Shown: piece after piece, positions 11,909 to 60,270 of the stretch
Layout of the letters: every line of letters starts with the position of its first letter
Position numbering within the stretch: the first letter of the stretch is position 1
NCBI GenBank assembly: GCA_043798995.1
Contig: JAZDOD010000011.1
Location: forward strand, 4,737-68,736
DNA from: a bacterium
Lineage (GTDB): Bacteria > Patescibacteriota > Patescibacteriia > JAACEG01 > JAGUWE01
Direction: 5' to 3'
DNA: 64,000 bases
Made by a program: the position numbers and the translations under genes
Notes under the pieces: model-generated
What the model was told of the DNA's origin: nothing
What the model saw: the letters and a program-made list of their open reading frames with translations, nothing else
Database searches by the model: none

Positions 11909-12075
11909 GTCATTGCGAGTCATGCCTTTGACAGGGTGTGGCAATCTCATACTTTTTTTGTCATCCTGAACGGAGTGAAGGATCTCACGGGAGGCCATAA
12001 GCCGACCCGTGTTTTTTTCGCGGGTCGCAAGCTCCCGCGAGATTCCTCGGGCTACACCCTCGGAATGACATTTAA
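11909..12075. repeat. Two adjacent MITE-like elements (TGTCATTGCGAG...GCAATCTC end, then a TGTCATCCTGA...GAATGACAT element with nested hairpins)
   Basis: First matches the left end of the GIY-YIG unit at 28841; second is paralogous to 17881-18025. Confidence 0.6.
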
Positions 12076-12756: not shown

Positions 12757-12852
12757 TGTCATTCCTGCGGAAGCAGGAATCCAGAGAAGTTATTTTATCA
12801 ACCAATCCTGACAAATTAAAATCTAGATTCCGCATCAAGTGCGGAATGACAT
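12757..12852. repeat. MITE-like element, family A (TIR GTCATTCC/GGAATGAC enclosing two palindromic hairpins)
   Basis: TGTCATTCCTGCGGAAGCAGGAATCCAGA ... GATTCCGCATCAAGTGCGGAATGACAT; same ends as the GIY-YIG unit at 19161-19542. Confidence 0.65.
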
Positions 12853-14029: not shown

Positions 14030-15058
14030 ATGTCAACTCTTTCACTTAAACCACCAAAAATTATCGCTGTTTTAGGAACAACCGCTTCGGGCAAAACCAA
14101 GCTGGCAGTTAGATTAGCTTATCTGTTTAATGGTGAGATTGTCTCAGCTGACAGCCGACAGGTTTATCAAGGTATGGATATCGGGACAGGGAAAGATCTT
14201 GACGATTATATCATCAAAGTCAAAAGTCCCATGCCTACCGGCCCGCTTCGCCGTAGCTTCAGCGAGGCGAGCAGGCAGGAAAAGTCAAAAGTCAAAATTT
14301 TTGAAATTCCATATTATTTAATTGATGTGGTAAGCCCCAAAAAGCAGTTTAATCTGGCGGATTATCAACGTTTGGCTTATCAGGCAATTGATAAAATTTT
14401 AAAAAAAGGCAAACTGCCAATCTTAGCCGGCGGCAGCGGACTCTACCTTCAGGCCGCGGTTGATGGCTGGCTTTTATCAAAAGCAAGACCAGACAGAAAA
14501 TTACGCCAAGAATTAGAAAAGAAGAAAACGAGCTGGCTTTTTTCTTTTTTAAAGAAACTGGATAAAGATTTTGCTAAAAAAGTCAGTCAAAGTGATCAAA
14601 AAAATAAAAGGCGACTGATTAGATATATTGAAATAAAATTAGTCGAGACAAAGAGATTGCCACACTCCTTTCAATCGCTCGCAATGACAGGAGGTGGATA
14701 TGATACCTTACTTCTCGGCCTTACTTATCCCAAAGAAACTTTAAACCAAAGAATTGATAAAAGACTGGAGGAGCGGCTTGAACAAGGTCTGATTGAAGAA
14801 GTTAAAAGATTGCGTCAACAAGGTTTAAACTGGCAGCGTTTAGAGCAATTCGGCCTGGAGTATAAATTTGTGGCTTATTATCTGCAGGGCAAATTAGATT
14901 ATGAAGAAATGGCAGAAAAATTAAAAACAGCAATTCAGCAATTTGCTAAAAGGCAACTTACTTGGTTTCGGCGCTGGCAGAAAATGGGGGCTAAAATTCA
15001 TTGGATAAAAAGTGAAAATGAGGCCAAAAAATTGATTAAAAAATTTTTAAAAAGATAA
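14030..15058 (+). CDS. miaA: tRNA dimethylallyltransferase
   Basis: P-loop GTTASGKT, SADSRQVYQGMDIGT, LAGGSGLY; ~25 extra residues from repeat at 14226-14285. Confidence 0.9.
   Translation: MSTLSLKPPKIIAVLGTTASGKTKLAVRLAYLFNGEIVSADSRQVYQGMDIGTGKDLDDYIIKVKSPMPTGPLRRSFSEASRQEKSKVKIFEIPYYLIDVVSPKKQFNLADYQRLAYQAIDKILKKGKLPILAGGSGLYLQAAVDGWLLSKARPDRKLRQELEKKKTSWLFSFLKKLDKDFAKKVSQSDQKNKRRLIRYIEIKLVETKRLPHSFQSLAMTGGGYDTLLLGLTYPKETLNQRIDKRLEERLEQGLIEEVKRLRQQGLNWQRLEQFGLEYKFVAYYLQGKLDYEEMAEKLKTAIQQFAKRQLTWFRRWQKMGAKIHWIKSENEAKKLIKKFLKR
14226..14285. repeat. Palindromic repeat (family E) inserted in frame in miaA
   Basis: GGCCCGCTTCGCCGTAGCTTCAGCGAGGCGAGCAGGCAGG is the reverse complement of the repeat at 39950-40010; flanked by AAAGTCAAAAGTC direct repeats. 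Confidence 0.5.
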
Positions 15059-19160: not shown

Positions 19161-19542
19161 TGTCATTCCTGCGGAAGCAGGAATCCAGACGATTAAAGAT
19201 CATAATACAGATCTTGCCAGTTAGGATTTGATTTTTCAATTAATTCTAATTTCCATTTTCTCTTCCATTTTTTTAATCTTTTTTCACCCTCGATAGCACT
19301 TTCTATACTAGCCGTTTCTTCGTAATAAACTAAATTATGGATTTTATACTTTTTCGTAAAACCGGAAATTAAATCGTTTTTATGTTCGTAAATCCTCTTT
19401 TTTAAATTTGATGTCACTCCGATATATAGAGTACCATTTCTTTTACTTGCCAAGATATAAACGTAATAAGATTTCATTGTTTTCTGGATCCCGCATCCCG
19501 CCTGCATTAAAATTACGGCGGGCAGGCAAGTGCGGGATGACA
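19161..19542. mobile_element. ~382-bp GIY-YIG-encoding unit bounded by inverted hairpin ends (TGTCATTCCTGCGGAAGCAGGAATCCAGA ... TCTGGATCCCGCAT...GTGCGGGATGACAT)
   Basis: Both ends occur fused, without the gene, as the 61-bp MITE at 55868-55928. Confidence 0.6.
19193..19477 (-). CDS. GIY-YIG nuclease family small protein
   Basis: MKSYYVYILASKRNGTLYIGVTSNLKKRIYEH...; the first 22 codons of the listed ORF lie in the right hairpin end, so start moved to M23. Confidence 0.8.
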   Translation of the reverse strand: MKSYYVYILASKRNGTLYIGVTSNLKKRIYEHKNDLISGFTKKYKIHNLVYYEETASIESAIEGEKRLKKWKRKWKLELIEKSNPNWQDLYYDL

Positions 19543-19596
19543 TAGGGAGAATTAGTGTGGAATGACAAAATAAATATTGTTAGGATGACAGAAAAT

Positions 19597-28840: not shown

Positions 28841-29230
28841 TGTCATTGCGATCCGCCAGCTGGCGGAGAAGCAATCTCTTCCTTAATTTATGAAACACAA
28901 AAAATACTATGTCTATATAATGACTAATAAAACTAACTCCACGCTTTATAGCGGTGTAACAAATAATCTTAAAGAGAGAGTCTATCAACATAAAGGCAAA
29001 TTAATCGAAGGATTTACTAAAAAGTATAACATTAATAAATTAGTTTATTATGAGGAGTTTAACAATGCTTACGATGCAATCGCTCGAGAGAAACAAATTA
29101 AAGCGGGTTCAAGGAAAAAGAAAATTGAACTAATTGAGAAAGAAAATAAAAATTGGAAGAATTTAAGCGAAGATTGGTAAAGTGAGATTGCCGCGTCGTC
29201 CTGCCTGCGGCGGGACTCCTCGCAATGACA
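28841..29230. mobile_element. ~390-bp GIY-YIG-encoding unit with symmetric ends (TGTCATTGCGA-hairpin-GCAATCTC ... GAGATTGC-hairpin-TCGCAATGACA)
   Basis: 11-bp TIR TGTCATTGCGA/TCGCAATGACA plus inner inverted pair GCAATCTC/GAGATTGC; isolated ends at 11909 and 50748. Confidence 0.6.
28890..29180 (+). CDS. GIY-YIG nuclease family small protein
   Basis: YYVYIMTNKTNSTLYSGVTNNLKERVYQHK; paralog of 19193-19477. Confidence 0.8.
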   Translation: MKHKKYYVYIMTNKTNSTLYSGVTNNLKERVYQHKGKLIEGFTKKYNINKLVYYEEFNNAYDAIAREKQIKAGSRKKKIELIEKENKNWKNLSEDW

Positions 29231-29244
29231 AAAACACAAACTCC

Positions 29245-32013
29245 ATGCCGGAAAATAAAAAAATAGAATCAACCCCGCAACTTATCAATTGCCCGACTTG
29301 TGCCGGCAGAGGCAAGGTTGAAGGAAAAACCTGTCCTTTTTGTTTAGGTTTGGGCCAGATGGCTTTCTTGGACGGCCAGTTTTTATATTGGGATAAAAAA
29401 ATCAGCTTTTTAGCTATTCTTCAGCGAAAAACCGAACAGACGGTCAAAAATATTTTGGAGTTTAGTTTGTTTTTCTTTGGCATTTTGGGTTTGACCGTCT
29501 TGGCTTGGGAAATTTGGCAAGTTGGCGCCGCCAATTTTTTTAACTGGGAATATTTTTTCCATCAGGAAAAAATCATGCTTATCTTCTGGTTGAGTATTCT
29601 GACCGATATGTATTTTTTTTATCGTAAAGACCGAGAATTTACCGCCAAAGAAAAAGTCAGAAAAAGAAAATATGGCGCAATAGAAATACCCTTGGTTTTA
29701 GAAGAAAATTACTGGCCGGATTTAGCTAAAATTGCCAAAGACAATAAAATTGAAGTTTCACAGGTGATGTCGCAGGAAGCATTGATTGCCGTTGAACAAT
29801 CCTGGCAGATGGCCCAGCGCCTAAAACTTAAAGAAGTTTTACCAATTCATCTTTTAGCTCATTTATTTTTTTCTGATAAAGTAAGAATTATTTTTGCCCG
29901 ATTAGGCATTAATGTTGAGGAAGTGCTGACTAAAATCAGGCATTTAATTGAAGGGGGGAATCACCCTCCGGAAGAAGCGCCCGGCATTTCTCCCGAGCTT
30001 AAGCAGATTTTTTTCTGGGCTTATCAACATGCCTTCCTCAGCCAGCGGAAGGAAGTTGATGTGGTGGAATTGCTTTTGGCCTTAAGCCAGAAAAATCCGA
30101 GTATCCAGGATTTATTTTTGGACTTGGAAATTGATCAGGATAAAATTAGAAATGTAGTTGAGTGGGTCAAGATTCAGGAAAGCTTAAGGCAGCGCTGGCT
30201 GCGCTTCAGGCATCGGGCTGCCTGGAAGCCCAAGGGCTCAATGGATCGGGCTATGACAGCTGTGGCCACGCCCTTTTTGGATTATTTCAGCCAGGACTTG
30301 ACATTATTAGCCAAAATGGGTTATTTAGATTTATGCGTTGGCCGGGAAAAAGAAATAGAAGAAATTTTTCGGGTCATTGAAGCCAATCGGCAGAGCGTGA
30401 TTCTGGTCGGCAATCCCGGCGTGGGCAAAACCACCATTATTGAAGGCATTGCCGGATTGATGGTTTCGGAAGATGTGCCGAATCTCATTCAGGACAAAAG
30501 GTTTGTCAGTTTAAGCGCGGCCAAATTAATTAGCGGCGCTTCTCCCTCCGAGGCCCAAGGCCGGCTTTTAAGCGTTATTGAAGAAATCCGACGCGCCGGC
30601 AATATTGTTTTGTTTATCAGCGATATCCAGGAAATGGTTGGCATTACCCCCGGCGGCGAAGAAAGTTTAGATTTGGCCGGAGTGCTTTTCCAAGCGCTGG
30701 CTAAAAATTATTTTTTCTGTTTTGCTACCACCACGCCGTCTGATTACACCCGTTATTTGGAAGCAGCTTCGGGTTTAAGTCAGGTTTTTCAGAAAATTGA
30801 GGTTGCCGAGCCGGATGTTAATCAGACGATTCAGATTTTGGAAGCTAAAAGCGCCCGCATTGAAGCGCAAAACCAAGTTTATTTTTCCTATAATGCCATA
30901 GAAAGAACGGTTCAGCTGGCTATCCGCTATATTCACGATAGATTCCTGCCGGAAAAAGCCATTCGCATTTTGGAACAGGTGGCAATTTATGCGCAAAAGA
31001 AAAAAGGCGCTAATACCATTGTTGGAGCTGAAGATGTGGCGGAAATAATTTCTCAAAAAACCAACATTCCGGTAACCAAAGTGACCGAAGAAGAATCGGA
31101 AAAACTTTTGACTCTGGAAGACAAAATTCACGAGAGAATAGTTGATCAAGAAGAAGCTGTTAAAATAGTGGCCTCGGCCTTGCGCCGGGCCAGAGCAGAA
31201 CTCAGAGACATTAAGCGGCCGATTGTTAATCTGCTTTTCTTGGGTCCGACCGGCGTTGGTAAAACCGAAGTTTCCAAAACCGTGGCTGAAGTCTACTTCG
31301 GCTCCGAAGAAAATATGATTCGTTTGGATATGAGCGAATATCAGGAGCAGACCAGCGTCTATCGGATGATTGGCTCGCCTCTGGGCAGGCAGCGAGAGCC
31401 CGGCTACTTAACCGAAGCGGTCAGAAATAATCCTTTTTCTTTGGTACTCCTAGATGAAGTTGAAAAAGCTCATCCGGATATTTTAAATTTATTTTTACAA
31501 GTAATGGATGATGGTCGTCTGACTGATAATTTAGGCCGGACTATTGATTTTACCAATGTCATTTTAATCGCCACTTCCAATGCCGGCACCGGTTTTATTC
31601 AGGAAAAAATGAAAGAAGGTTGGTCGGTTGAAAAAATTAAACAAGGATTAATTGAGATGGAAATTAAGCAATATTTTCGGCCGGAATTTCTCAACCGTTT
31701 TGACGGCATTGTGGTTTTTAAACCTTTGAGTATGACCGAAGTGGTAGAAATCGCTAAATTACTTTTAAAGAAAGTTGCCCAAAGATTAGTTGACAAAGGA
31801 ATTAATTTAGAAGTCAGTGATGAAGCCGTTTCAGAATTAGCCCAGGCCGGTTTTGACCCGCAATTTGGCGCGAGACCCTTGCGGCGTGTCATCCAAGAGC
31901 GAATTGACGACAGTTTAGCCCATTATTTACTGACTCAAAAACTTAGCCGTCGCGACACCATTGTTTTTCAAGCCGGGGGAGTGATTGAAGTGAAAAAAGC
32001 CAGGAAGTTGTAA
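29245..32013 (+). CDS. Membrane-anchored ClpA/ClpC-like double AAA+ ATPase with N-terminal DnaJ-type zinc finger
   Basis: CPTCAGRGKVEGKTCPFCLGLG, two TM helices, Clp-N repeats, Walker A GNPGVGKT and GPTGVGKT, TGF loop; start moved to M22 of listed ORF. Confidence 0.85.
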   Translation: MPENKKIESTPQLINCPTCAGRGKVEGKTCPFCLGLGQMAFLDGQFLYWDKKISFLAILQRKTEQTVKNILEFSLFFFGILGLTVLAWEIWQVGAANFFNWEYFFHQEKIMLIFWLSILTDMYFFYRKDREFTAKEKVRKRKYGAIEIPLVLEENYWPDLAKIAKDNKIEVSQVMSQEALIAVEQSWQMAQRLKLKEVLPIHLLAHLFFSDKVRIIFARLGINVEEVLTKIRHLIEGGNHPPEEAPGISPELKQIFFWAYQHAFLSQRKEVDVVELLLALSQKNPSIQDLFLDLEIDQDKIRNVVEWVKIQESLRQRWLRFRHRAAWKPKGSMDRAMTAVATPFLDYFSQDLTLLAKMGYLDLCVGREKEIEEIFRVIEANRQSVILVGNPGVGKTTIIEGIAGLMVSEDVPNLIQDKRFVSLSAAKLISGASPSEAQGRLLSVIEEIRRAGNIVLFISDIQEMVGITPGGEESLDLAGVLFQALAKNYFFCFATTTPSDYTRYLEAASGLSQVFQKIEVAEPDVNQTIQILEAKSARIEAQNQVYFSYNAIERTVQLAIRYIHDRFLPEKAIRILEQVAIYAQKKKGANTIVGAEDVAEIISQKTNIPVTKVTEEESEKLLTLEDKIHERIVDQEEAVKIVASALRRARAELRDIKRPIVNLLFLGPTGVGKTEVSKTVAEVYFGSEENMIRLDMSEYQEQTSVYRMIGSPLGRQREPGYLTEAVRNNPFSLVLLDEVEKAHPDILNLFLQVMDDGRLTDNLGRTIDFTNVILIATSNAGTGFIQEKMKEGWSVEKIKQGLIEMEIKQYFRPEFLNRFDGIVVFKPLSMTEVVEIAKLLLKKVAQRLVDKGINLEVSDEAVSELAQAGFDPQFGARPLRRVIQERIDDSLAHYLLTQKLSRRDTIVFQAGGVIEVKKARKL

Positions 32014-34364: not shown

Positions 34365-34449
34365 ATTTTGGAAGGGTCGCATTGCGCCTCTTCGGCGCAT
34401 TTATGCGCCAAGTTGGCGCATCCGCCGTTGAGGCGGAAGTGGAAAATAT

Positions 34450-34710
34450 ATGTATTATTTTTATGTTTTACAATTTAAGAATAATAAAAAATTATATAAA
34501 GGAATTACAAATAATTTAAGAAAAAGAATAACAGATCATCGTTCTGGTCAGTCAAAATTTACTTCACGAAACGGCGATTTTAATTTAATTTTTTATGAAG
34601 CGTATTTAGATAAAAGAGATGCCATAGAGGCGGAAAGATATTTTAAGAGCGGTCACGGCAGAGAAGTATTGAGGCAAAAATTAAAATATTATTTTGGAAG
34701 GGTCGCATAG
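34450..34710 (+). CDS. GIY-YIG nuclease family small protein; C-terminus overlaps tRNA-Ser
   Basis: MYYFYVLQFKNNKKLYKGITNNLRKRITDH; stop codon TAG at 34708-34710 inside the tRNA. Confidence 0.8.
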   Translation: MYYFYVLQFKNNKKLYKGITNNLRKRITDHRSGQSKFTSRNGDFNLIFYEAYLDKRDAIEAERYFKSGHGREVLRQKLKYYFGRVA

Positions 34711-34780
34711 TGGTCTAGTGCGCCTGCTTGGAGAGCAGGTATGCCGCAAGGCATCGCGAGTTCAAATCTCGCCCCTTCCG
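34696..34780 (+). tRNA. tRNA-Ser (anticodon GGA)
   Basis: Hand-folded: acceptor GGAAGGG/CCCTTCC, 3-bp D stem, anticodon stem CCTGC/GCAGG loop TTGGAGA, long variable arm ATGCC-GCAA-GGCAT, T-loop TTCAAAT, discriminator G. Confidence 0.85.
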
Positions 34781-34848
34781 TTTGAGTTTTTTGCGGCAAA
34801 AATTATCAAAGCACTTGGCGTTTCTATTGAGGAGTTAATAAAATAACT

Positions 34849-39865: not shown

Positions 39866-40045
39866 ATTTTCCTTTGTCTTTCAGGGCTTATTAAAATGTC
39901 ATACTGAACTCGTTTCAGTATCTCACAGAGAATTCAAAAAGAGATCCCAAAACCCGCCTGCTCGCCTCGCTGAAGCTTATGACGAAGCGGGCCAACGAGG
40001 CAGGCAAATTCGGGACGACAACTTAAGAATAAGGAATAATAAGCC

Positions 40046-48191: not shown

Positions 48192-48196
48192 AAACT

Positions 48197-48230
48197 GGGG
48201 GGTCGTCTAATGGTAGGACACCAGCCTTTT
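48197..48230 (+). other. Diverged duplicate of tRNA-Gln 5-prime half, ending in the anticodon loop
   Basis: GGGGGGTCGTCTAATGGTAGGACACCAGCCTTTT vs TGCGGGATCGTCTAATGGTAGGACCGCGGCCTTTG. Confidence 0.45.
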
Positions 48231-48306
48231 CCGCCGGAGGCGGACTCGCCTTTTCCGCCAAAGGCGGATCTGCCTTGGGCATGAGGCGAGGAAGCCGAAA
48301 ATAAAA

Positions 48307-48645
48307 ATGTATTACACTTATATATTAAAAAGCAAAAAAGACGGAATTCGTTATGTTGGTAGCGGTGAAGATGTATTAGAAAGATTACGTCGGCATAATA
48401 AAGGTGACCATCAATTTACAAAAGGGCACCGACCTTGGGAATTAATTTATCAAGAAAAATATAGCACAAGATCAGAAGCTATGAGGCGTGAAAAATTTTT
48501 AAAATCAGGTCAAGGAAGAAAAATTTTAGATGAGGTTCTCGGCAAGGCTGCGGGATCGTCTAATGGTAGGACCGCGGCCTTTGAAGCCGTTAATCATGGT
48601 TCGAATCCATGTCCCGCAGCCTTGCCGAGAAATAGTAAAGAGTAG
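48307..48645 (+). CDS. GIY-YIG nuclease family small protein; reading frame runs through tRNA-Gln
   Basis: MYYTYILKSKKDGIRYVGSGEDVLERLRRHNKG; last ~30 codons overlap the tRNA, true C-terminus uncertain. Confidence 0.7.
   Translation: MYYTYILKSKKDGIRYVGSGEDVLERLRRHNKGDHQFTKGHRPWELIYQEKYSTRSEAMRREKFLKSGQGRKILDEVLGKAAGSSNGRTAAFEAVNHGSNPCPAALPRNSKE
48549..48619 (+). tRNA. tRNA-Gln (anticodon TTG)
   Basis: Hand-folded: acceptor TGCGGGA/TCCCGCA with U1-A72, D stem GTCT/GGAC, anticodon stem GCGGC/GCCGT loop CTTTGAA, T stem CATGG/CCATG loop TTCGAAT, discriminator G. Confidence 0.85.
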
Positions 48646-48720
48646 GAGAGACGGCCTTTTCCACTGGGGGCGGACTTGCTTGTCCCGCCTTGGCGGGGCG
48701 GCCTCCTTGCCCCGCTATAG

Positions 48721-48760
48721 GCGGGGTGAAGAGCCGTTAATCATGGCCCGCCCCGCACCA
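48721..48760 (+). other. tRNA-Gln 3-prime-half-like fragment ending in CCA
   Basis: TGAAGAGCCGTTAATCATGG matches the tRNA from anticodon loop through T stem, then CCCGCCCCGCACCA. Confidence 0.35.
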
Positions 48761-50454: not shown

Positions 50455-50490
50455 AAGCCCCCCGCTTTTAAAAGCGGGGGGCTTTTTGTT
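50455..50490 (+). terminator. Strong intrinsic terminator
   Basis: GCCCCCCGCTTTT/AAAAGCGGGGGGC then TTTTTG. Confidence 0.7.
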
Positions 50491-50674
50491 TATTTGTCTA
50501 AATTTTAAGTTCAATAATATATGTTATTCCTGTGAAAACAGGAATCCAGACCATTGAACCGGAATCTAGAGCTCGGATCAAGTCCGAGGTGACAATAAGG
50601 AATTTTGGTGGCGGGGTAAATACAGTCTAAATTTTCAATCCTGCCAAGGCGGGAGAAAAAATTTAGACAAATAA
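50489..50674. repeat. ~186-bp element bounded by perfect 18-bp inverted repeats TTTATTTGTCTAAATTTT, containing MITE hairpins
   Basis: Left IR 50489-50506, right IR 50657-50674; same end sequence after T-runs at 59758 and 60150. Confidence 0.5.
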
Positions 50675-51469: not shown

Positions 51470-51654
51470 CTCGTCCTCCTTTTTAAAAGATTTAGTTTAA
51501 ATTTTAATTGCAAAACAAAAATTTGTCAAGATTTTTACGGCATTTATTAAATTCATTAGGTTAAAATAAGCCGGCTTGAATCCGGCGTCTTGTTACGCGA
51601 CTTGACAAATCATATGATTTTATAGTAACTTTAATTATCTATTAATATAAAAAT

Positions 51655-53409
51655 TTGTTTATGATTAGCTTTTTTACTAAAAGTAGAAATCATGCCGAAC
51701 TCGGCGAAATACTCAAAAAAGAAGGCCTCTTAACCAAAGAGCAGTTTGAAACAATTGTCCGCCAGGCCGAAAAGGCAGGCCGCCATTTGACAGAGATTAT
51801 TTTTGAGGACAGCTCATTGCCCGAGGAAAAAACTTTGGCGCTACTTTGCCAGTTTTATGATTTACCGCCTGTTTTTCTAAGAAAGAAAGTAATTTCTCCG
51901 TTGGTGATCAATCTTATTCCCAAAGAAGTTGCCGAACAGCACAATGTTATAATTTTTAAAAAAATCAAAGATGTAATTCATGTTGCCATCACCAACCCGG
52001 AGAATTATCAAATTTTGGAATTTATTAAAAAGAAAACCGAATTGGAACCGATACCCCATCTGACCACGCCCAAGGATATCAATGTCGCTTTAAGAAAATA
52101 TAATACCCAGATCGGCGAAGATCTGGCCCAAATCATTGATTATAGCGTTAAGGAAGCGGCAGCTTTGAATGTTTCTCCGGAACAGGCCGCTCGCTTTCTT
52201 CCTGTTATAAAAATGGTTAATGGAATTATTGAAAAAGCCCTTGGCAAAGGAGCATCCGATATTCACGTGGAGCCGACTTTAGACAAAATTATTATCCGTT
52301 ACCGAATCGACGGCATGTTGAATAGGGTAGCGGAATTGCCGAAAGAAGCTTTGCCCCTTTTTATAACCAGAATTAAGATCTTGGCCAATCTTAAAATTGA
52401 TGAACACATGATACCTCAGGACGGTCGTTTTCATTTTAAATATCAGGATCAGGAAATTGCTATCAGAGTTTCAATTATTCCAACACTCCACGGCCCCAAA
52501 GCAGCCCTGCGGCTTTTGGAAATGCAACAGAAAGTTTTTACCCTGAGGAAGCTCGGCCTGAATCAAAATCACTATGGTTTGCTCAAAAATGAAATCAAAG
52601 CCAATCAGGGCATGATTTTGGTTACCGGCCCTACCGGCAGCGGCAAAACTACCACTCTTTATACGCTTATGCGCATGCTCAACCGAGAAGATGTTAATAT
52701 CTGCACCATTGAAGATCCGATTGAATATAGCATTGACAATATTAATCAAATGCAAGTTAAGCCCCAAGTCGGCCTGACCTTTGCTTCGGGGCTGCGGTCG
52801 CTTCTCCGCCAGGACCCCAATATCATAATGGTTGGAGAAATAAGAGACGAGGAAACGGCCAGTATGGCGGCCAATTCTGCCATGACCGGCCATTTAGTTT
52901 TATCAACTTTGCATACCAATAACGCCTTTTTTGTTGTTCAAAGGTTATATGAAATGGGCATTCAGCCCTATCTTTTGGCTTCGGTTATCAATTTGGTTAT
53001 CGGCCAACGCTTAGTCAGAAGAATTTGTTCTAATTGCCGCGGTCGGGGACGTTTTCCGGAAAAAATTATCGCCAATTACCAGCCATTTTTAAAAATTAAA
53101 GAAACAATAACAAAATTAAAAAAACAGGATCTTTTGCCCAAGGACATTAAAGTCCAAGAATTTCGGCTACTTCACGGGAGAGGTTGCGCCAAATGCAATT
53201 ACACCGGCTATCAGGGCAGAGTAGGAATTTACGAAATATTAAAAATAGACAGAAAAATGCGAAAATTAATTCTGAGCGACAACAGCGAAGAGGCAATTAG
53301 AAGATATGCCGCCTCACAAAATATTTTGACCATGGCCGAAGACGGCATTCTAAAAGTTCTAAACGGCGTCACTACTTTTGACGAAGTTTTAAGGGTAACC
53401 AAAGAATAA
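51655..53409 (+). CDS. pilB: Type IV pilus assembly ATPase (GspE/PilB family)
   Basis: T2SSE_N-like N-domain, Walker A LVTGPTGSGKTTTLY, Asp box, GEIRDEETA, tetracysteine motif. Confidence 0.9.
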   Translation: MFMISFFTKSRNHAELGEILKKEGLLTKEQFETIVRQAEKAGRHLTEIIFEDSSLPEEKTLALLCQFYDLPPVFLRKKVISPLVINLIPKEVAEQHNVIIFKKIKDVIHVAITNPENYQILEFIKKKTELEPIPHLTTPKDINVALRKYNTQIGEDLAQIIDYSVKEAAALNVSPEQAARFLPVIKMVNGIIEKALGKGASDIHVEPTLDKIIIRYRIDGMLNRVAELPKEALPLFITRIKILANLKIDEHMIPQDGRFHFKYQDQEIAIRVSIIPTLHGPKAALRLLEMQQKVFTLRKLGLNQNHYGLLKNEIKANQGMILVTGPTGSGKTTTLYTLMRMLNREDVNICTIEDPIEYSIDNINQMQVKPQVGLTFASGLRSLLRQDPNIIMVGEIRDEETASMAANSAMTGHLVLSTLHTNNAFFVVQRLYEMGIQPYLLASVINLVIGQRLVRRICSNCRGRGRFPEKIIANYQPFLKIKETITKLKKQDLLPKDIKVQEFRLLHGRGCAKCNYTGYQGRVGIYEILKIDRKMRKLILSDNSEEAIRRYAASQNILTMAEDGILKVLNGVTTFDEVLRVTKE

Positions 53410-53415
53410 AATAAT

Positions 53416-54624
53416 ATGCCAATCTATACTTTTAGCGCGCTCAAAGAAGACAATTCTTATATAAAAGGAAAGGTAAAGGCGCGCAGTCAGAAAAAAGCTA
53501 TAAAGATATTAGAAAAAGAGAAATTGTTGACGGTAAATATAAAAAAGGAAAAAAAGTTTGTCTGGGATAAAGTTTTAGCTTTTTCCACCGTCAGCCGGAT
53601 TGATAAGATTAATTTTACCAGGCATTTGGAGGCTTATCTTGAAGCAGGGGTTAATTTGGGCGAAGCGGTTAAAATCGCCGCCGAGCAAACCACCAATAAA
53701 AAATTGCAAGGAATTCTTGATGATATACACAAGAAAATTATGGGCGGCCAGAGTTTAAATGGCGCGCTTTCCCAGCACAGTAAATATTTTTCAAAATATT
53801 TTATTCGCCTGATAAGGGTAGGGGAAGAAAGCGGCTCCTTGGATAAAATACTGCGGCAGCTTTTAGAGCAGCAGGAAAAAGAATACGAATTAATAGGGAC
53901 CGTTCGCCGCTCTTTAACCTATCCGATTATCATAATCTTGGCTGCGATCGCGGTGGTAGTTTTTATGATGACTTTTGTCATCCCGACCGTTGCCAAAGTT
54001 TTGATTGATTACGGCGGCAAGCTGCCTTTGGCCACCAAAATCCTCATTACCGTAAGTAATTTTTTGGTTAATTTTGGCCTCTTGATGGCGCTGCTGATAA
54101 TTGTTATCGTTGTTTTTCTGCGGATTATAATCAAAAGAACTCCTTGGGGCAAATGGTATTTTGAATCTTTTCTCTTTTCCGTACCTATTCTCAAGAGAAT
54201 TATCATTGAATACAACATTGCTCATTTCACCACTTCAATGAGCGCGCCTCTTATGAGCGGCATACCCATAGACAAAGCTCTTGAATTAGCGGCAGAATCC
54301 TATCCTAACAGCCATTACCGGAAAACCATCAAAGAAAGCATAATTTTTATCCATCGCGGAGTTTCGCTTTCCGAGGTTTTGCGGGCGCACCCCAAGCTTT
54401 ATCCGCCGAATGTAATCCGCATAATCGAGATCGGCGAGCGAACCGGCCGGATTGACAATATGTTTTCCCACCTGGCTAATTTTTATCAAAAGTCGGTGAC
54501 CAACACCCTTAGCAATCTATCAACCGTTATTGAGCCGTTTTTATTAATTGCCATCGGTTTGACGGTTTGCTTTATTGCCGTTTCAATCCTCACGCCGATT
54601 TGGAGTTTTGCCGAAACCGTTTAA
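53416..54624 (+). CDS. pilC: Type IV pilus inner-membrane platform protein (GspF/PilC family)
   Basis: Two GspF repeats with 3 TM helices, 402 aa, follows pilB. Confidence 0.9.
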   Translation: MPIYTFSALKEDNSYIKGKVKARSQKKAIKILEKEKLLTVNIKKEKKFVWDKVLAFSTVSRIDKINFTRHLEAYLEAGVNLGEAVKIAAEQTTNKKLQGILDDIHKKIMGGQSLNGALSQHSKYFSKYFIRLIRVGEESGSLDKILRQLLEQQEKEYELIGTVRRSLTYPIIIILAAIAVVVFMMTFVIPTVAKVLIDYGGKLPLATKILITVSNFLVNFGLLMALLIIVIVVFLRIIIKRTPWGKWYFESFLFSVPILKRIIIEYNIAHFTTSMSAPLMSGIPIDKALELAAESYPNSHYRKTIKESIIFIHRGVSLSEVLRAHPKLYPPNVIRIIEIGERTGRIDNMFSHLANFYQKSVTNTLSNLSTVIEPFLLIAIGLTVCFIAVSILTPIWSFAETV

Positions 54625-54667
54625 CTTGATAATTCATTGTTGTCTTGCCGCAGAGTTGCCTTCGTCT

Positions 54668-54790
54668 GTCATTCCCGCGGAAGCGGGAATCCAGACGCCG
54701 TTCCTGCGAAAGCAGGGAGCCAGGGGATGTGGATTCCCGTTTTCACGGGAATGACAAAAAAAGAAAAAGTGCGGGATGACAAATAGAACG
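54668..54790. repeat. Compound MITE-like hairpin repeats (family A variants)
   Basis: TGTCATTCCCGCGGAAGCGGGAATCCAGA ... GGATTCCCGTTTTCACGGGAATGACA ... GTGCGGGATGACA. Confidence 0.6.
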
Positions 54791-54807
54791 CAAAAACTTC
54801 AACTTTT

Positions 54808-55257
54808 ATGAAAAATAAATTTAAAAGCAAGGGAGGTTTTACCTTAATTGAGATGCTTGTAGTAATGGCGGCTTTCGGTTTTATTTTAGCCATTACTGTT
54901 TTGTCTTACAATAATATCAGAAACAACATTGTCTTAAACAATAACGGTTTTGAGATAGCAAACGCCCTAAGAGAAGCGCAAAGCCGGTCCATCGTTTCTA
55001 AAAATAACCAAGTGCACGGCGTTCATTTTAATTCTGCCGATTATATTTTATATGACGGTCATTGGCCGGACATTACTTCTCAAACTGCTTATTCTTTTTC
55101 CCAAGGCATAAATATTTATAGCGGCGAAGGCATTAGCGTGGAATTTATGCGTCTCACCGGAGGAGCCGTCCAAGCAGAAGAAATTGTCATTGGCACAACC
55201 TCGGGCAACCAGAAGACAATCAGAATTGCCGCTAGCGGAAGAATTTCCATTGAATAA
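54808..55257 (+). CDS. Type IV pilin / pseudopilin
   Basis: Class III signal KSKGG-FTLIEMLVVMAAFGFIL, Glu+5. Confidence 0.8.
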   Translation: MKNKFKSKGGFTLIEMLVVMAAFGFILAITVLSYNNIRNNIVLNNNGFEIANALREAQSRSIVSKNNQVHGVHFNSADYILYDGHWPDITSQTAYSFSQGINIYSGEGISVEFMRLTGGAVQAEEIVIGTTSGNQKTIRIAASGRISIE

Positions 55258-55261
55258 ATAT

Positions 55262-55855
55262 ATGAAAAAACATCCTAAGGGATATATTATATTGGAAGTC
55301 ATTTTAGTTATCGGTATGGTATCATTGATTGTTCTTAGCGTCGGTAAAATTTTAGACACGCTTATAAGGTTAAATAAAATCAGCGAATCGCAAAGCAAAG
55401 CCCTAAGCTTTGCCCAAGAATCTTTGGAGATAATGAATGCCATAGGGCCGGCGAACTTTGTCTGCAGCTGCAACTTGGGCGATAGTTGCTCTTCTGGTAC
55501 CTGCACCAGGGCAAGCGATAGCCAACCTTGCAGTTTGTTTGCCGGCTACACCAGTTGCTGGACAGCTTATCCAAAAGATTTTGTCGGGCAAACAAATTTT
55601 TATTTGGAAAAAGTTGGCACAGAGTGGCAACTGCGCGTCTTAAGCACTCCGAGTGAAACCATTGCCGCGGATACTCATTTTACCAGAAAGTTAACCATTG
55701 AAAATGCCTTGCGTGATGCCGATGGCAACATTGCTTCAGCCGGCACGCCTGACTCCAATACCAAAAAAATAACGGTTAAGGTTTGGTACAGTGAGCGCAG
55801 CGTAGTCCATGAAGTTGCTTTGAAAACAATTCTGACTGCTTGGAAGAATTATTAA
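55262..55855 (+). CDS. Minor pilin-like protein (Cys-rich)
   Basis: MKKHPKG-YIILEVILVIGMVSLIVL with Glu+5; start trimmed to ATG 55262. Confidence 0.6.
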   Translation: MKKHPKGYIILEVILVIGMVSLIVLSVGKILDTLIRLNKISESQSKALSFAQESLEIMNAIGPANFVCSCNLGDSCSSGTCTRASDSQPCSLFAGYTSCWTAYPKDFVGQTNFYLEKVGTEWQLRVLSTPSETIAADTHFTRKLTIENALRDADGNIASAGTPDSNTKKITVKVWYSERSVVHEVALKTILTAWKNY

Positions 55856-55867
55856 AACAAATCTGTC

Positions 55868-55960
55868 ATTTTGACTTCTTCTCTTTGTCATTCCTGCGGA
55901 AGCAGGAATCCAGAGCTGGATCCCGCATCAAGTGCGGGATGACATAGATGAGGCACAGGA
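55868..55960. repeat. MITE: fused left and right ends of the GIY-YIG unit (gene deleted) plus extra hairpin
   Basis: TGTCATTCCTGCGGAAGCAGGAATCCAGAGCTGGATCCCGCATCAAGTGCGGGATGACAT. Confidence 0.7.
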
Positions 55961-55992
55961 ATGACAAAGAGAATATAAAATAAATTATAGAT

Positions 55993-56535
55993 ATGAAAAA
56001 TAATTTTAAAAATCAAGCCGGGCCTGCCCTCACACAAAAATTTGTTGTGACCCTGCGAAACAGGGGAGGGTTTACCATGATCGAGTTGCTTATTTATCTT
56101 GCCTTGACTACCGTGATTATTACGATTTTTACCGCTTTTATGGCCGAGGCCCTAAAAAGCCAGAGAAAAACAATTAACTCTCAAGCGGTTCAGCAGGAAA
56201 GCCGTTTTATTATTTCCCGCATCACCCAAGAGGTAAAAACTGCCCGGGAAGTTACCAGCGTTGAGCCCCAAAGATTAACCCTGAAAAATCCGGACAATCA
56301 AACAATCCAACTTTATCTAAATAGCATCGATGGCCTGGTTTATTTTGACAACAGCGTCCAAACCTCGCCTCTTTCCAGCCAAGACATTAAAATAACCCAA
56401 CTTAATTTTTCCCAAGAAGGTGATATTATTTATATCAATCTTACGGCCGAGAAAGATGAAACGCCCGACCAGCCAGGAGGCATATACTCACTTAGCTCGT
56501 CTTCGCTGGTGGTTCCCCGGGAGAAAATATATTAA
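55993..56535 (+). CDS. Pilin-like protein with long leader
   Basis: RNRGG-FTMIELLIYLALTTVIITIF with Glu+5. Confidence 0.65.
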   Translation: MKNNFKNQAGPALTQKFVVTLRNRGGFTMIELLIYLALTTVIITIFTAFMAEALKSQRKTINSQAVQQESRFIISRITQEVKTAREVTSVEPQRLTLKNPDNQTIQLYLNSIDGLVYFDNSVQTSPLSSQDIKITQLNFSQEGDIIYINLTAEKDETPDQPGGIYSLSSSSLVVPREKIY

Positions 56536-56550
56536 GAGAAAAACCTTATT

Positions 56551-56700
56551 TTTTTACCCTGTCATTCCGGACTCCCTTCTGTCATTCCTGCGAAACTTGT
56601 CCTCGAGAAATCGGGGAGCAGGAATCCAGGAGAATTGATATGGTTCCCCGTTTTCACGGGGACGGAGTCTGGATCCCGTATCTAGTACGGGATGACAAAG
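56551..56700. repeat. Cluster of MITE-like hairpin repeats (family A variants)
   Basis: GTCATTCCGG..., TGTCATTCCTGCGAAAC...GCAGGAATCCAGG, GGTTCCCCGTTTTCACGGGGACGG, GGATCCCGTATCTAGTACGGGATGACA. Confidence 0.6.
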
Positions 56701-56713
56701 AAAGAAGCGCAGG

Positions 56714-58096
56714 ATGGTATTCAATAATTCTATAATTATGAATTTTAAATATCAAAAACCAGAAGGGATGATTGCAGTGCTTACTTTGTTCGGCGTTACG
56801 GCCGTGACCTTGGCTATTGCCTCAACTTTGGTTTCGCTTTCAATCGGCGATCTTAAAATGAGCCGGGCAGGAGGATCTTTAGAACAGGCCTTTTATTCGG
56901 CCGAGTCAGGTCTTAACGAAGCGCTTTATCGGCTGATTAAAAATCCCGTTCCGGGAAATTATTCAATTAATCTTGACGGCACCAGTATTGCCATTTCCGT
57001 TTCAACTAATCCCGCCGATCATTACCAGCGAATCATTCAGTCGCAAGCTACAGACCCAACAGGTAAAATCCGCACCGTTAGAATTATTGCCAATACTTCT
57101 TCTTTCGCCGGCGGTTTTGATTATGCCGTTCAGGGCGGCAATGGCGGCATTCATATGGATAATAACAGCGAGGTAGCAGGCGGTGTTTATTCCAACAGCA
57201 GCATTTTACCAGCCGGCGCTTGTCCCGGGGGCGAATCAGCCAAGCCCCTTATTAACGGTAATGTCTGGGTGGCTAATAGTAATCTTTTAGATTGCGTTAA
57301 AGTAGGCGGCGAGGTCCGCTCCAATACTATTCATCGTTCAATTATCAGCAGCAATGCTTATTATCAGACAATTGACGGGTCAACAAAAGTTGGCGGCACG
57401 CCTTGTCCTAACGGCCATTGCTTTCCCTCATCACCCGATCCTTTGCCTAAGCCCATGCCGATTAATGATGACGATGTTAATACTTGGAAAACCGAGATTA
57501 TAAATGCAGGCAATCCTGTTTTACTGCCCAACACAGCTGATTGCCCGATTGATGCCCTCGGCAATCATCTTCCCAATACTTATTGTATAATGGCAGATAC
57601 AACCTTGGGTTTGCAAAAAATAGAAGCCGATATTTATATTGACAATGGCGTTACCCTTACTTTACTTGGCAATATTTGGGCAACGGGGAAAATTATTTTA
57701 CAGAATAACGGTCTTATCAAAATTGATCCGTCTTTGGGCTGGGGCAGCGCGGTGATTATTACCGATGACATTGTTGATGTTGGTGAAAATTTCAGTATTT
57801 CCGGCTCGGGCGATCCGCGCAGTTTTGTTTTGATTCTTTCAACCAGCACCAGCGTTGATCCGGCTCTGCCTGCAGTTTATGCTTCCAATAATTCGGCTTC
57901 CATCGTCTTTGCCGCTATCCACGGCCTGCTAAAGGTTAAAAATAATGGCGCGCTTAATGCCGCAGCCGCAGAAGAGCTTTGGCTTGAGCCCAACAGTCGG
58001 GTAACCTACAATCCGCTTTTGGCAGCTTTTTCCGTGCCCGGCGGCGGTGGCGGCGACGAAGTCGGTACTGCCCTGGGAACTTGGGAAGAGAAATAA
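56714..58096 (+). CDS. Type IV pilus-associated protein with PilX_N-like N-terminus
   Basis: MIAVLTLFGVTAVTLAIASTLVSLSIGDLKMSRAGGSLEQAFYSAESGLNEAL; 460 aa. Confidence 0.6.
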   Translation: MVFNNSIIMNFKYQKPEGMIAVLTLFGVTAVTLAIASTLVSLSIGDLKMSRAGGSLEQAFYSAESGLNEALYRLIKNPVPGNYSINLDGTSIAISVSTNPADHYQRIIQSQATDPTGKIRTVRIIANTSSFAGGFDYAVQGGNGGIHMDNNSEVAGGVYSNSSILPAGACPGGESAKPLINGNVWVANSNLLDCVKVGGEVRSNTIHRSIISSNAYYQTIDGSTKVGGTPCPNGHCFPSSPDPLPKPMPINDDDVNTWKTEIINAGNPVLLPNTADCPIDALGNHLPNTYCIMADTTLGLQKIEADIYIDNGVTLTLLGNIWATGKIILQNNGLIKIDPSLGWGSAVIITDDIVDVGENFSISGSGDPRSFVLILSTSTSVDPALPAVYASNNSASIVFAAIHGLLKVKNNGALNAAAAEELWLEPNSRVTYNPLLAAFSVPGGGGGDEVGTALGTWEEK

Positions 58097-58118
58097 TTAT
58101 AACTGCAAATTCGGTAAA

Positions 58119-58150
58119 AATAAAAAAGTCCTGTTTCAGACTTTTTTATT
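58119..58150. terminator. Bidirectional intrinsic terminator
   Basis: AAAAAAGTC-CTGTTTCA-GACTTTTTT. Confidence 0.6.
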
Positions 58151-58166
58151 AATTTTTTAAAACAAT

Positions 58167-59274: not shown

Positions 59275-59391
59275 ATTTTTAGATAGATAGATTTTAAAAC
59301 TATTTTTAGTTTATATTTAATCAAAACGAATGTCAAGGTAAGGTTTAAAAAGGAGATTGTCGCGCCAAAGGCGGGACGTGGCAATCTCTTT

Positions 59392-59460
59392 TTCTCTTTG
59401 TCATCCCGCACTTGATGCGGGATCCAGCTCTGGATTCCTGGTCAAGCCAGGAATGACAGA
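59392..59460. repeat. MITE (reverse orientation of the fused-end element, variant hairpin)
   Basis: TGTCATCCCGCACTTGATGCGGGATCCAGCTCTGGATTCCTGGTCAAGCCAGGAATGACAGA. Confidence 0.65.
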
Positions 59461-59534
59461 AAGGAGCCAGGCAATGATGGAAAAGCGAGTGGGGGGAGTT
59501 TCCCCCACCTATTAGAGTTATCCCCAGCTTAAAA

Positions 59535-59569: not shown

Positions 59570-59755
59570 GATGATTTAATGTCTAATTGATATTGTAGAT
59601 AAACGACCCCGTGCCTCGATATGGGGCAAGTCTCGTACTTTGCGGGGTAAACCAATAAACTAAATCCGAAACTTTTTAAAAATAAGGAAGGCACCCCGAA
59701 AATTAAACTTCGTTTAATAACGGGGCAAAGGGAGGAAAAAGTTATTGGTTTTTTT
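59570..59755 (+). ncRNA. Candidate ~185-nt structured small RNA (unclassified)
   Basis: No ORF; hairpins CCCC.../GGGG, CACCCCG...CGGGG with nested CGAA/TTCG; closing stem CCAATAAAC/GTTATTGG then U7. Confidence 0.25.
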
Positions 59756-59757
59756 GT

Positions 59758-59900
59758 TTATTTGTTTAAATTTTCGATTCCATTAATATATGTCATTCCT
59801 GTGAAAACAGGAATCCAGAGCTGGATCCCGCATCTACCGCCTTTGGCGGGACAAGCAAGTGCGGGATGACAATAAGAGAAATTCAGGATGACATTGAAAA
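59758..59900. repeat. Compound repeat: TTTGTTTATTTGTTTAAATTTT end plus family-A MITE hairpins
   Basis: Shares terminus with 50489 and 60150; contains ATTCCTGTGAAAACAGGAAT and CCGCCTTTGGCGGG. Confidence 0.55.
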
Positions 59901-60149
59901 ATAATCCCGCATAGATTTTTGGACTAGGCCTATTTGCTGTCACGAGATTAAAAGTGGTTAAAACAGCTTAGGTTGTTTCTTAACTGCCTTCCTCGAGATG
60001 CCCTTAGGTGCGTCCAAAAATTTGTGCAGGATATATATTAAGTAATTAAAAAAGTATGACCTACACAGCAAGAGAAATTCATTTCCCAAACTTTTGTTTT
60101 TGTTGGAAAAAAATAAATTTAAATATTATAAAATCTCAAGTTTAGCTTG

Positions 60150-60270
60150 AGATTTTTTGTTTATTTGTTTAAATTTTCAATCACGCCAAAGTCGAGAGCA
60201 GGAAATTTAGCAACAAATAAACATCCTGCCGTATCCGCCTACTGGCGGAGAAGGCGGATAAAAGGTTAGT
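60150..60270. repeat. Repeat with TTTGTTTATTTGTTTAAATTTT end and CCGCC...GGCGG hairpin
   Basis: Inserted after the T-run of hairpin CTCAAGTTTAGCTTGAG. Confidence 0.5.

Follow-up and report, generated by a model that had tools for sequence, protein, structure and literature searches.

The window analysed here, a 64,000-nt stretch of contig JAZDOD010000011.1 (assembly GCA_043798995.1; G+C content of the window 39%), belongs to a probable genome of the candidate phyla radiation (CPR, or Patescibacteria), as judged from the best named hits of PilC ('Patescibacteria group') and dihydrofolate reductase (Moranbacteria), and carries a co-directional type IV pilus cluster in which three intergenic gaps hold hairpin repeats of a kind that also flanks two small GIY-YIG genes, termed ssn-1 and ssn-2, elsewhere in the window. 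The cluster lies on the plus strand and begins with the gene for a PilB-like assembly ATPase (51655-53409; Pfam T2SSE, E=2e-124; NCBIfam PilB, E=2.5e-154, a match below the curated cutoff), followed by genes for a PilC/GspF-like platform protein (53416-54624; Pfam T2SSF, E=9.5e-47), minor pilin 1 with a prepilin N-methylation motif (54808-55257; Pfam N_methyl, E=9e-7), pilin-like protein 2 with a weak ComGE-like match (55262-55855), minor pilin 3 (55993-56535; Pfam N_methyl) and a PilX-like protein with a weak PilX_N match (56738-58096). The open reading frame (ORF) of the PilX-like protein opens at 56714 and, judged from its orthologues, the start is more likely at 56738. An exact-protein look-up returned no record for pilin 3, and no competence genes were found among the large neighbouring ORFs.

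Two junctions of the cluster are tight (pilB-pilC, 6 nt; pilin 1-pilin 2, 4 nt), and the other three measure 183 nt (PilC-pilin 1, gap 1), 137 nt (pilin 2-pilin 3, gap 2) and 178 nt (pilin 3-PilX, gap 3). An earlier note, made from the sequence alone, had placed hairpin repeats at 54630-54807, 55856-55992 and 56536-56713, and both the positions and the two strings it quoted were confirmed, the strings lying in gap 2 at 55890-55909 (ATTCCTGCGGAAGCAGGAAT) and 55918-55944 (GGATCCCGCATCAAGTGCGGGATGACA). Its statement that every intergenic gap is filled in this way holds for these three gaps but not for the two tight junctions or for the spaces on either side of the cluster (51470-51654 and 58097-58166), in which no hairpin unit was found; and although repeats dominate the three gaps, the wording that they make them up almost entirely was a mild overstatement, with units covering 115 of 183, 104 of 137 and 138 of 178 nt of gaps 1, 2 and 3, respectively (63%, 76% and 78%). 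A unit consists of an unpaired tag, (T/C)GTC, an 8-bp stem whose first pairs are A-T and T-A, a loop of 4-5 nt, the second stem arm and a CCAG tail (e.g. TGTCATTCCTGCGGAAGCAGGAATCCAGA). Each gap contains two complete units together with degenerate or half units, and in each the forward unit precedes the reverse unit, with the tags pointing outward and facing the flanking genes.

Complete units were located with a detector (GTC, stem, C), for which 60 dinucleotide-preserving shuffles served as control. The window yielded 15 complete units, all of them outside ORFs, whereas 1.7 ± 1.2 are expected from the shuffles (maximum 4). The tag TGTC and an 8-bp stem beginning with AT are present in all 15, the CCAG tail in 12, and the loop measures 4 or 5 nt in 11 and is enlarged to 26-35 nt, enclosing a second hairpin, in the other 4. 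A covariance model, R1, built from 68 units picked by tag and tail alone, recognised 13 sites in the window with E-values from 3e-13 to 4e-3, adding 50522-50550 to the detector set. In the 68 units, the stem is paired in 99.4% of cells and both sides have changed in five of the eight pairs, a level of pairing and covariation that was reached in none of 500 shuffles and that no slid register comes close to. The hairpin is under selection, with strong stem-preserving covariation. Pairs of the G-U type occupy only 3 of 544 stem cells, so that a DNA-level structure fits better than one in RNA, a hint from sequence that the stem matters in DNA.

Gap 1 holds a complete forward unit, TGTCATTCCCGCGGAAGCGGGAATCCAGA (54667-54695, plus strand; R1 49.4 bits, E=2.7e-13), a degenerate forward unit that has lost its tag (54696-54724, plus; R1 17.9 bits, E=0.004), a complete reverse unit whose minus strand reads TGTCATTCCCGTGAAAACGGGAATCCA (54730-54756; R1 36.5 bits) and the 3' half of a further reverse unit, AAGTGCGGGATGACA (54767-54781, minus), a 15-mer that recurs identically at 19528-19542 and 55930-55944. 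Gap 2 begins with a half forward unit recognised by alignment, CTGTCATTTTGAC (55863-55875, plus), and continues with a complete forward unit (55886-55914, plus) that is 100% identical to 12757-12785 and 19161-19189 (R1 48.6 bits at all three; blastn 30/30), a complete reverse unit (55916-55944, minus) and a half reverse unit (55956-55973, minus) that forms a perfect 18-bp inverted repeat with 55879-55896, enclosing the doublet (DNA fold z=-6.3). In gap 3, a half forward unit seen by sequence inspection (56560-56571, plus) is followed by a forward unit in which the 8-bp stem encloses a loop enlarged to 26 nt (56580-56629, plus; a detector match and a partial R1 match), a degenerate reverse unit with a mutated tag (56641-56667, minus; R1 16.2 bits, E=0.015) and a complete reverse unit (56668-56697, minus; R1 24.9 bits).

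The leader of pilin 3 contains a 48-nt in-frame insertion (about 56021-56068, the AGPALTQKFVVTLRNRGG region) that is absent from the closest relative (locus L088), directly precedes the G|F prepilin cleavage site and holds a small hairpin, CCCTGCGAAACAGGG, that recalls the stem of the repeats. No other copy was found in the window and R1 gives it no score, so that the insertion does not qualify as a unit. Just upstream of pilin 3, at 55961-55988, the outward-facing reverse-unit tag ATGACA and the AT-rich DNA after it give a sigma-70-like -35/-10 match (9/12); to judge from this one match to a sigma-70 model, inserted units might supply outward promoters.

The units resemble a repeat family described twice. 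The CGTC-tagged repetitive extragenic palindromes (REPs) of Di Nocera et al. (2013, BMC Genomics 14:522; PMC3733652) have a CGTC or TGTC tag, AT-first stems of 8-9 bp, loops of 4-5 nt and a CCA tail, form mostly inverted dimers, and are multi-copy and mainly extragenic, occasionally intragenic; these authors equated them with Neisseria dRS3 and Rickettsia RPE-4/-6 and concluded that the family has no enzyme of its own. Chenal et al. (2025, Nat Commun 16:2388; PMC11893778) reported a 28-nt Neisseria repeat, NTS, generalised it to 'Ssn-related motifs' (SRM), and described ssnA, a 94-aa single-domain GIY-YIG gene that sits in an NTS-ssnA-NTS arrangement across phyla. The repeat reads CGTCATTCCCGCGMAVGCGGGAATCYRG there and TGTCATTCCCGCGGAAGCGGGAATCCAG in the window, where one unit (54667-54694, in gap 1) lies two mismatches from the NTS consensus, with no such match expected by chance. 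The published SRM pattern is matched by 4 of about 15 window units (0.06 expected), including the complete reverse units at 54730-54756, 55916-55944 and 56668-56697; the other units miss it because they have a compensated T:A stem pair where the pattern demands S (C or G), and since the pattern recovers so few, the detector and covariance model described above were built. The tag, AT-first stem, loop, tail and inverted dimers of the CGTC-tagged REPs are all found in the window units, which differ from them in that many have an enlarged loop with a second hairpin nested in it and in that they flank a GIY-YIG gene, as in Chenal et al. We are highly confident that the pilin-gap hairpins belong to the same family as the CGTC/TGTC-tagged REPs (NTS/SRM).

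An intact unit-ssn-unit cassette is found at 19161-19545, wedged between thyA and folA. Its gene, ssn-1 (19193-19477, minus strand), encodes a predicted 94-aa single-domain GIY-YIG nuclease (Pfam GIY-YIG, E=3.8e-16). At its 3' end lies the unit that is shared, without a single difference, with gap 2 and 12757-12785 (19161-19189, plus; R1 48.6 bits), and at its 5' end a long-loop unit (19487-19545, minus) whose stem is that of the gap 2 reverse unit, with two further half units at 19559-19590. The ssn-1 product is presumed to be the protein partner of the window repeats. More than 7,900 homologues of ssn-1 were found, of which the best 120 listed are 71-81% identical and bear names from many phyla (among them Flavobacterium, Gribaldobacteria, Deltaproteobacteria, Dehalococcoidales, Kiritimatiellia and Omnitrophica). 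No close solved structure was found, just distant UPF0213 proteins (E about 1e-3), and NCBIfam holds no specific model for it. Chenal et al. delimit the Ssn clade by cd10448 and by similarity to N. meningitidis SsnA at E<1e-10; ssn-1, a candidate member of this clade, shows the 94-aa length and the lone GIY-YIG domain.

The same arrangement recurs in a survey of 80 loci with ssn-1 relatives, one genome per species, of which 73 had enough flanking sequence. Tag-outward units were observed upstream of ssn in 56 of these 73 loci, downstream in 57, on both sides in 47 (64%) and on at least one side in 66, at a median unit-ssn distance of 21 nt, while units of the opposite orientation were rarer (11 and 18 loci). 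The starts TGTCAT and CGTCAT predominate across the 80 loci, and the CCAG tail is present in 173 of the 234 units found in them. Twelve of the 80 come from CPR lineages (Saccharibacteria, Kerfeldbacteria, Moraniibacteriota, Daviesbacteria, Parcubacteria and 'Patescibacteria group'). A general linkage of ssn to pilin genes was considered and rejected, ssn standing beside prepilin genes in just 1 of the 80 loci, a metagenome-assembled genome of Thermodesulfobacteriota in which the cassette lies immediately upstream of two prepilin genes (L074, 1840-2400).

The second paralogue, ssn-2 (28890-29180), encodes 96 aa with 59% identity to ssn-1 and lies between two hairpins of a subtype of its own, TGTCATTGCGATCCGCCAGCTGGCGGAGAAGCAATCTC (28841-28878, plus) and an inverted partner (29184-29230, minus). 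This subtype recurs as half units at 11909 and 50752 and, in a relative (L092), as a gene-less doublet between thyA and folA. ORF 29182-32013 (a ClpB-like AAA protein) takes its opening codons from the reverse unit at 29184-29230, and its true start probably lies beyond them.

To compare the pilus locus with that of other genomes, relatives were found through PilC, giving seven loci (L081, L082, L088, L089, L090, L094 and L095). The gene order pilB-pilC-pilin1-pilin2-pilin3 is kept in all seven, followed by pilX wherever the contig reaches. In the six with a PilC 50-58% identical to that of the window (all except L088), the junctions are mostly overlapping or 4-36 nt long, do not exceed 77 nt within pilC-pilin3, reach up to ~140 nt before pilX, and contain no hairpin units. 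L088, the closest relative, is collinear with the window (PilB 92%, PilC 89%, pilin 1 86%, pilin 2 86%, pilin 3 74%, a value that counts the leader insertion, and PilX 85% identical); the nucleotide sequences agree at 84-90%, and their alignment breaks exactly at the gaps. Between pilin 3 and PilX, the window carries a clean insertion of ~191 nt directly after the stop codon, the junction in L088 being just 5 nt long. Between PilC and pilin 1, L088 has ~150 nt that are unrelated to the window and hairpin-free, and between pilin 2 and pilin 3 it shares the first half unit (55863-55875 in the window) at the equivalent position, followed by different units (stem ATTCTGA, long loop). Applied to 85 kb of the relatives' loci, R1 found no significant unit, as against the 13 (E <= 0.004) in the 64-kb window. 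The thyA-folA junction offers a parallel: one relative (L091, dihydrofolate reductase 83% identical) has a 38-nt junction from which the unit-ssn-unit block is absent, and in L092 (86%) the place of unit-ssn-unit is taken by the gene-less doublet, of the GTCATTGCGA subtype. The pilin-gap repeats are thus very probably recent, lineage-specific insertions into a normally compact operon, and these alignments indicate that pilus junction sequences turn over fast.

The published biochemistry of SsnA-type proteins, obtained with the Neisseria and Wolbachia enzymes, indicates how such units could act (PMC11893778). SsnA binds the hairpin as single-stranded DNA alone, ignoring double-stranded DNA, RNA and the reverse strand, and cuts only the strand that bears the tag, a few nucleotides (about 3) to its 5' side; in N. 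meningitidis it brings about a roughly five-fold drop in transformation by NTS-bearing DNA. The explanation that we consider probable is that the pilin-gap hairpins are Ssn-associated CGTC-REP/SRM units, recently inserted into the pilus operon and acting as hairpins in single-stranded DNA. The units would then operate at the DNA level, where Ssn would bind them in single-stranded form and nick the tag-bearing strand alone, ~3 nt 5' of the tag, as described by Chenal et al. The gene-less doublets would represent non-autonomous copies, that is deletion derivatives, of the unit-ssn-unit cassette, or else its landing sites, and would accumulate at junctions tolerant of insertion; three such insertions would have opened the otherwise compact pilB-pilC-pilin-pilin-pilin-pilX operon, with any effect on pilin mRNA a by-product.

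As in the published system, a 94-aa single-domain GIY-YIG gene is found in a repeat-gene-repeat arrangement, and the repeats are extragenic, clustered and near surface or pilus genes. Unlike that system, the window comes from a probable CPR/Patescibacteria host, has repeats inside an operon, and has two ssn paralogues that are paired with different hairpin subtypes. Chenal et al. remarked that the NTS-ssn-NTS architecture resembles an insertion sequence, and the window cassette, which shares its ends with the gene-less doublets, is a candidate for the autonomous element, Ssn being a nuclease with transposase activity unproven. We suggest tentatively, and with slightly less than even confidence, that the units spread in an Ssn-dependent manner. 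The most far-reaching version, in which cassette and doublets form an active mobile family, with Ssn as the counterpart of RAYT (the REP-associated tyrosine transposase) and the 'missing' enzyme of the CGTC-REPs, nicking at the tag on single-stranded DNA, and in which the family has recently entered every usable junction of the DNA-uptake-type pilus operon so that each pilin gene is bracketed by cut sites, strikes us as unlikely.

Several observations weigh against the explanation that we favour. No convincing target-site duplication was found in the three filled/empty comparisons, drawn from the pilin and thyA-folA junctions, where the edges are ambiguous in A/T runs, and the edges of the pilin 3-PilX insertion lie 24 and 28 nt beyond the outermost tags; besides transposition in the strict sense, gain by recombination or slippage is therefore possible. 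The comparison with a close relative relies on one genome, L088. Most window units fail the published SRM pattern, owing to the compensated T:A pair, and post hoc statistics make no more than a modest case that the pilin cluster is preferred as a target (two tests, P=0.0075 and P=0.13). Ssn, moreover, has been shown to cut single-stranded DNA and to restrict transformation, mobilisation going beyond the published results (PMC11893778).

In their general class, the repeats were aptly called MITE (miniature inverted-repeat transposable element) hairpins by the earlier note, since they are REP-type hairpins in inverted doublets with a MITE- or REPIN-like look. The MITE-type traits are doublets of 60-140 nt, inverted units, a lack of coding capacity and the perfect 18-bp inverted repeat 55879-55896/55956-55973. 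Like MITEs such as the Correia element of Neisseria, they are small, non-coding and multi-copy, with terminal inverted repeats, sit at gene junctions and vary between relatives; unlike them, their 'terminal repeats' are themselves hairpins, no target-site duplication is seen, and no classical transposase is known as a partner, Ssn being a nuclease. The resemblance to REPIN-RAYT systems lies in the inverted doublets that form a long composite hairpin, in one or few copies of a protein gene flanked by matching repeats, and in recognition that is probably on single-stranded DNA. Those systems, however, have a GTAG tag and an IS200/IS605-type HUH/Y1 transposase, whereas here the tag is TGTC and the flanked gene GIY-YIG; the combination of a GTAG tag with a flanked RAYT gene was not found in the window, which was not exhaustively scanned for Y1 transposases.

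The units could also have consequences for gene exchange. With the tags outward and the cut 5' of the tag, whichever strand entered the cell as single-stranded DNA would be cut at the doublet edges beside the pilin genes, and in the window's organism this could lower allelic replacement of the flanked pilin genes by transformation, as in Neisseria. A stronger claim, by analogy with what has been proposed for N. meningitidis, is that the doublets are kept around the pilin genes as an adaptive insulation, because Ssn cutting of incoming DNA reduces their replacement. CPR bacteria are thought to depend on DNA uptake, the window combines the nuclease gene with cognate sites oriented so that cuts would fall at the doublet edges, the pilus genes show affinities to ComG, and the region at 50-60 kb is enriched in units. 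Yet relatives do not share the layout, pilin genes adjoin just 1 of 80 ssn loci, and the enrichment is modest; an adaptive role of this kind seems rather improbable.

E. coli REP elements are reported to influence mRNA 3' ends and decay, and the earlier note had proposed in the same vein that the hairpins tune pilin stoichiometry, in which case they would function in mRNA as processing or stability elements setting the levels of individual pilin transcripts. The three gaps do correspond to positions within one co-directional operon of the relatives, and both strands of each fold into long composite hairpins (z from -4.5 to -7.2 against shuffles), the sense-strand folds being very stable (z about -5 to -6). 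A built-in tuner, however, would be expected to be conserved, and relatives run the operon without the repeats, so that the proposal is unsupported as a conserved function. A collinear locus free of repeats in close relatives, the outcome that the note had itself set against its proposals, is largely what was found: six relatives have no units and L088 is free of them at two of the three junctions. No plus-strand terminator-like site (stem and T-run) occurs in 54625-54807, 55856-55992 or 56536-56737, identical units are found at unrelated loci (thyA-folA, beside hicAB and others), G-U pairs are almost unused, and SsnA binds no RNA (PMC11893778). Rfam at gathering thresholds identified two tRNAs and no repeat family in the whole window, and a permissive scan of the locus gave just sub-threshold matches to eukaryotic miRNA precursors, as expected of generic long hairpins. 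A regulatory role in mRNA is accordingly very unlikely, while an incidental effect of the repeats on the stability or processing of pilin mRNA is possible.

The second proposal of the earlier note, that the repeats are recombination hotspots yielding pilin variation through cassette exchange or rearrangement, has a precedent in Neisseria, where NTS clusters adjoin membrane and host-interaction genes and the genes beside dRS3/NTS are more variable (PMC11893778); the junctions are, in addition, the parts of the locus most divergent between the window and L088, and the points at which alignments break. It did not hold up at the level of the genes themselves, however, at the divergence available for comparison. 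Their order and content are constant in the seven relatives as far as the contigs reach, the six proteins are orthologous to those of L088 at 74-92% identity with no swapped or mosaic segment, and the window, in which just two prepilin motifs were found, showed no silent copies of pilin genes; we give this proposal little chance. Chance palindromes or ordinary intrinsic terminators, which GC-rich stems in AT-rich intergenic DNA can mimic, can be dismissed in view of the 15 units against 1.7 expected, a tag and tail conserved across phyla, copies of up to 42 nt that are 100% identical and the absence of T-runs behind the stems, the terminator reading having been rejected for all three pilin gaps.

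Beyond the pilin gaps, units occur at 12757-12851, 19161-19590, 39897-39925, 50522-50594, 59399-59458 and 59791-59871, and all eight sites in the window are ordered forward then reverse. The site at 12757-12851 is a gene-less doublet of a forward and a reverse unit, and further doublets of this type lie at 59399-59458, adjoining hicAB, and 59791-59871 (all three found by the detector and R1), while 50522-50594, ~1 kb upstream of pilB, consists of a forward unit (R1 37.6 bits for 50522-50550) and a degenerate reverse unit recognised from its sequence. Of the 49 non-ORF gaps that measure 40 nt or more, 9 contain detector units; three of the nine are the consecutive pilin gaps, and the others lie at 12.7, 19.1, 19.5, 39.9 and 59.3-60.2 kb. 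The length-weighted chance of at least three of eight clusters falling within the 498 nt of non-ORF sequence of the pilin gaps is 0.0075, and that of any run of three occupied consecutive gaps 0.13. The enrichment at the pilin cluster, a local hot spot, is real but modest, and the unit family is not specific to this cluster.

Some of these copies are identical. A 30-nt unit is 100% identical at three sites (12757, 19160 and 55885), and a 42-nt stretch of gap 2 (55903-55944) is 100% identical, in inverted orientation, to 59399-59440, 3.5 kb away. This identity is striking because the nearest relative is 10-16% diverged, and it suggests very recent copying or gene conversion.

These results place an intergenic pattern that at first looked unexplained within a characterised system of Ssn nuclease and NTS/SRM hairpins, and extend that system to a probable CPR/Patescibacteria genome; the word 'Patescibacteria', the single term searched for, is absent from the main text of Chenal et al. 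(PMC11893778). What is new is the occurrence in a CPR host, the presence of two ssn paralogues whose hairpin subtypes match them, and the filled and empty junctions that bear on Ssn mobility. The junctions at pilin 3-PilX and thyA-folA, together with the paralogue subtypes, provide comparative evidence that the published suggestion of an insertion sequence lacked. In the literature searched, we found no later paper on the Ssn system, nothing on peptides encoded by repeats and nothing relevant on GIY-YIG proteins with MITEs.

Several ORFs run through the units (54669-54893, minus; 54575-54754, plus; 56420-56638, plus; 56554-56724, minus; 59357-59515, plus; 59758-59943, minus; 19478-19543, minus), and reading through them gives recurrent pseudo-peptides such as VIPAEAGIQ, CHPALDAGS and WIPVFTGMT. 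These ORFs are spurious genes or false N-terminal extensions that annotation pipelines would probably call, for example the 5' extension of 19193-19543 or the ORF starting at 29182, and the hairpin units are worth masking in the annotation of CPR genomes. A miaA-like ORF (14030-15058) contains, at 14650-14716, a half unit (…CTCGCAATGACA) of the GTCATTGCGA subtype, with GGAGG-N5-ATG after it; the unit may be intragenic, or the ORF may be mis-joined.

The unit at 39897-39925 has a different stem, TGTCATACTGAACTCGTTTCAGTATCTCA, which resembles the 'NTSvar' of Neisseria wadsworthii (CGTCATACTCGGG…CCCGAGTATC), and is trailed by a degenerate long-loop partner at about 39945-40020. A separate intergenic hairpin motif, CCGCC-N3-5-GGCGG (e.g. 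CCGCCAAAGGCGG), was observed at 34420, 48150, 48236, 48258, 48690, 50680, 59366 and 60232, and also makes up the enlarged loops of some long-loop units. The sequence TTTTTGTTTATTTGT(C/T)TAAATTTT is present in three copies (50484-50520, 59752-59790 and 60157-60185), two of which immediately precede a hairpin doublet.

Two more small GIY-YIG ORFs, at 34450-34710 (42% identity to ssn-1) and 48307-48645 (36%), are situated directly 5' of tRNA-Ser (34695-34781) and tRNA-Gln (48549-48621), respectively. The initial 13 nt of tRNA-Ser (GGAAGGGTCGCAT) are duplicated at 34366, and a tRNA-like 5' fragment is found at 48196-48230, with a 3'-like fragment ending in GCACCA near 48728-48760. The regions 34366-34781 and 48196-48760 look like endonuclease genes that have been inserted within or next to tRNA genes, and may include an interrupted tRNA.

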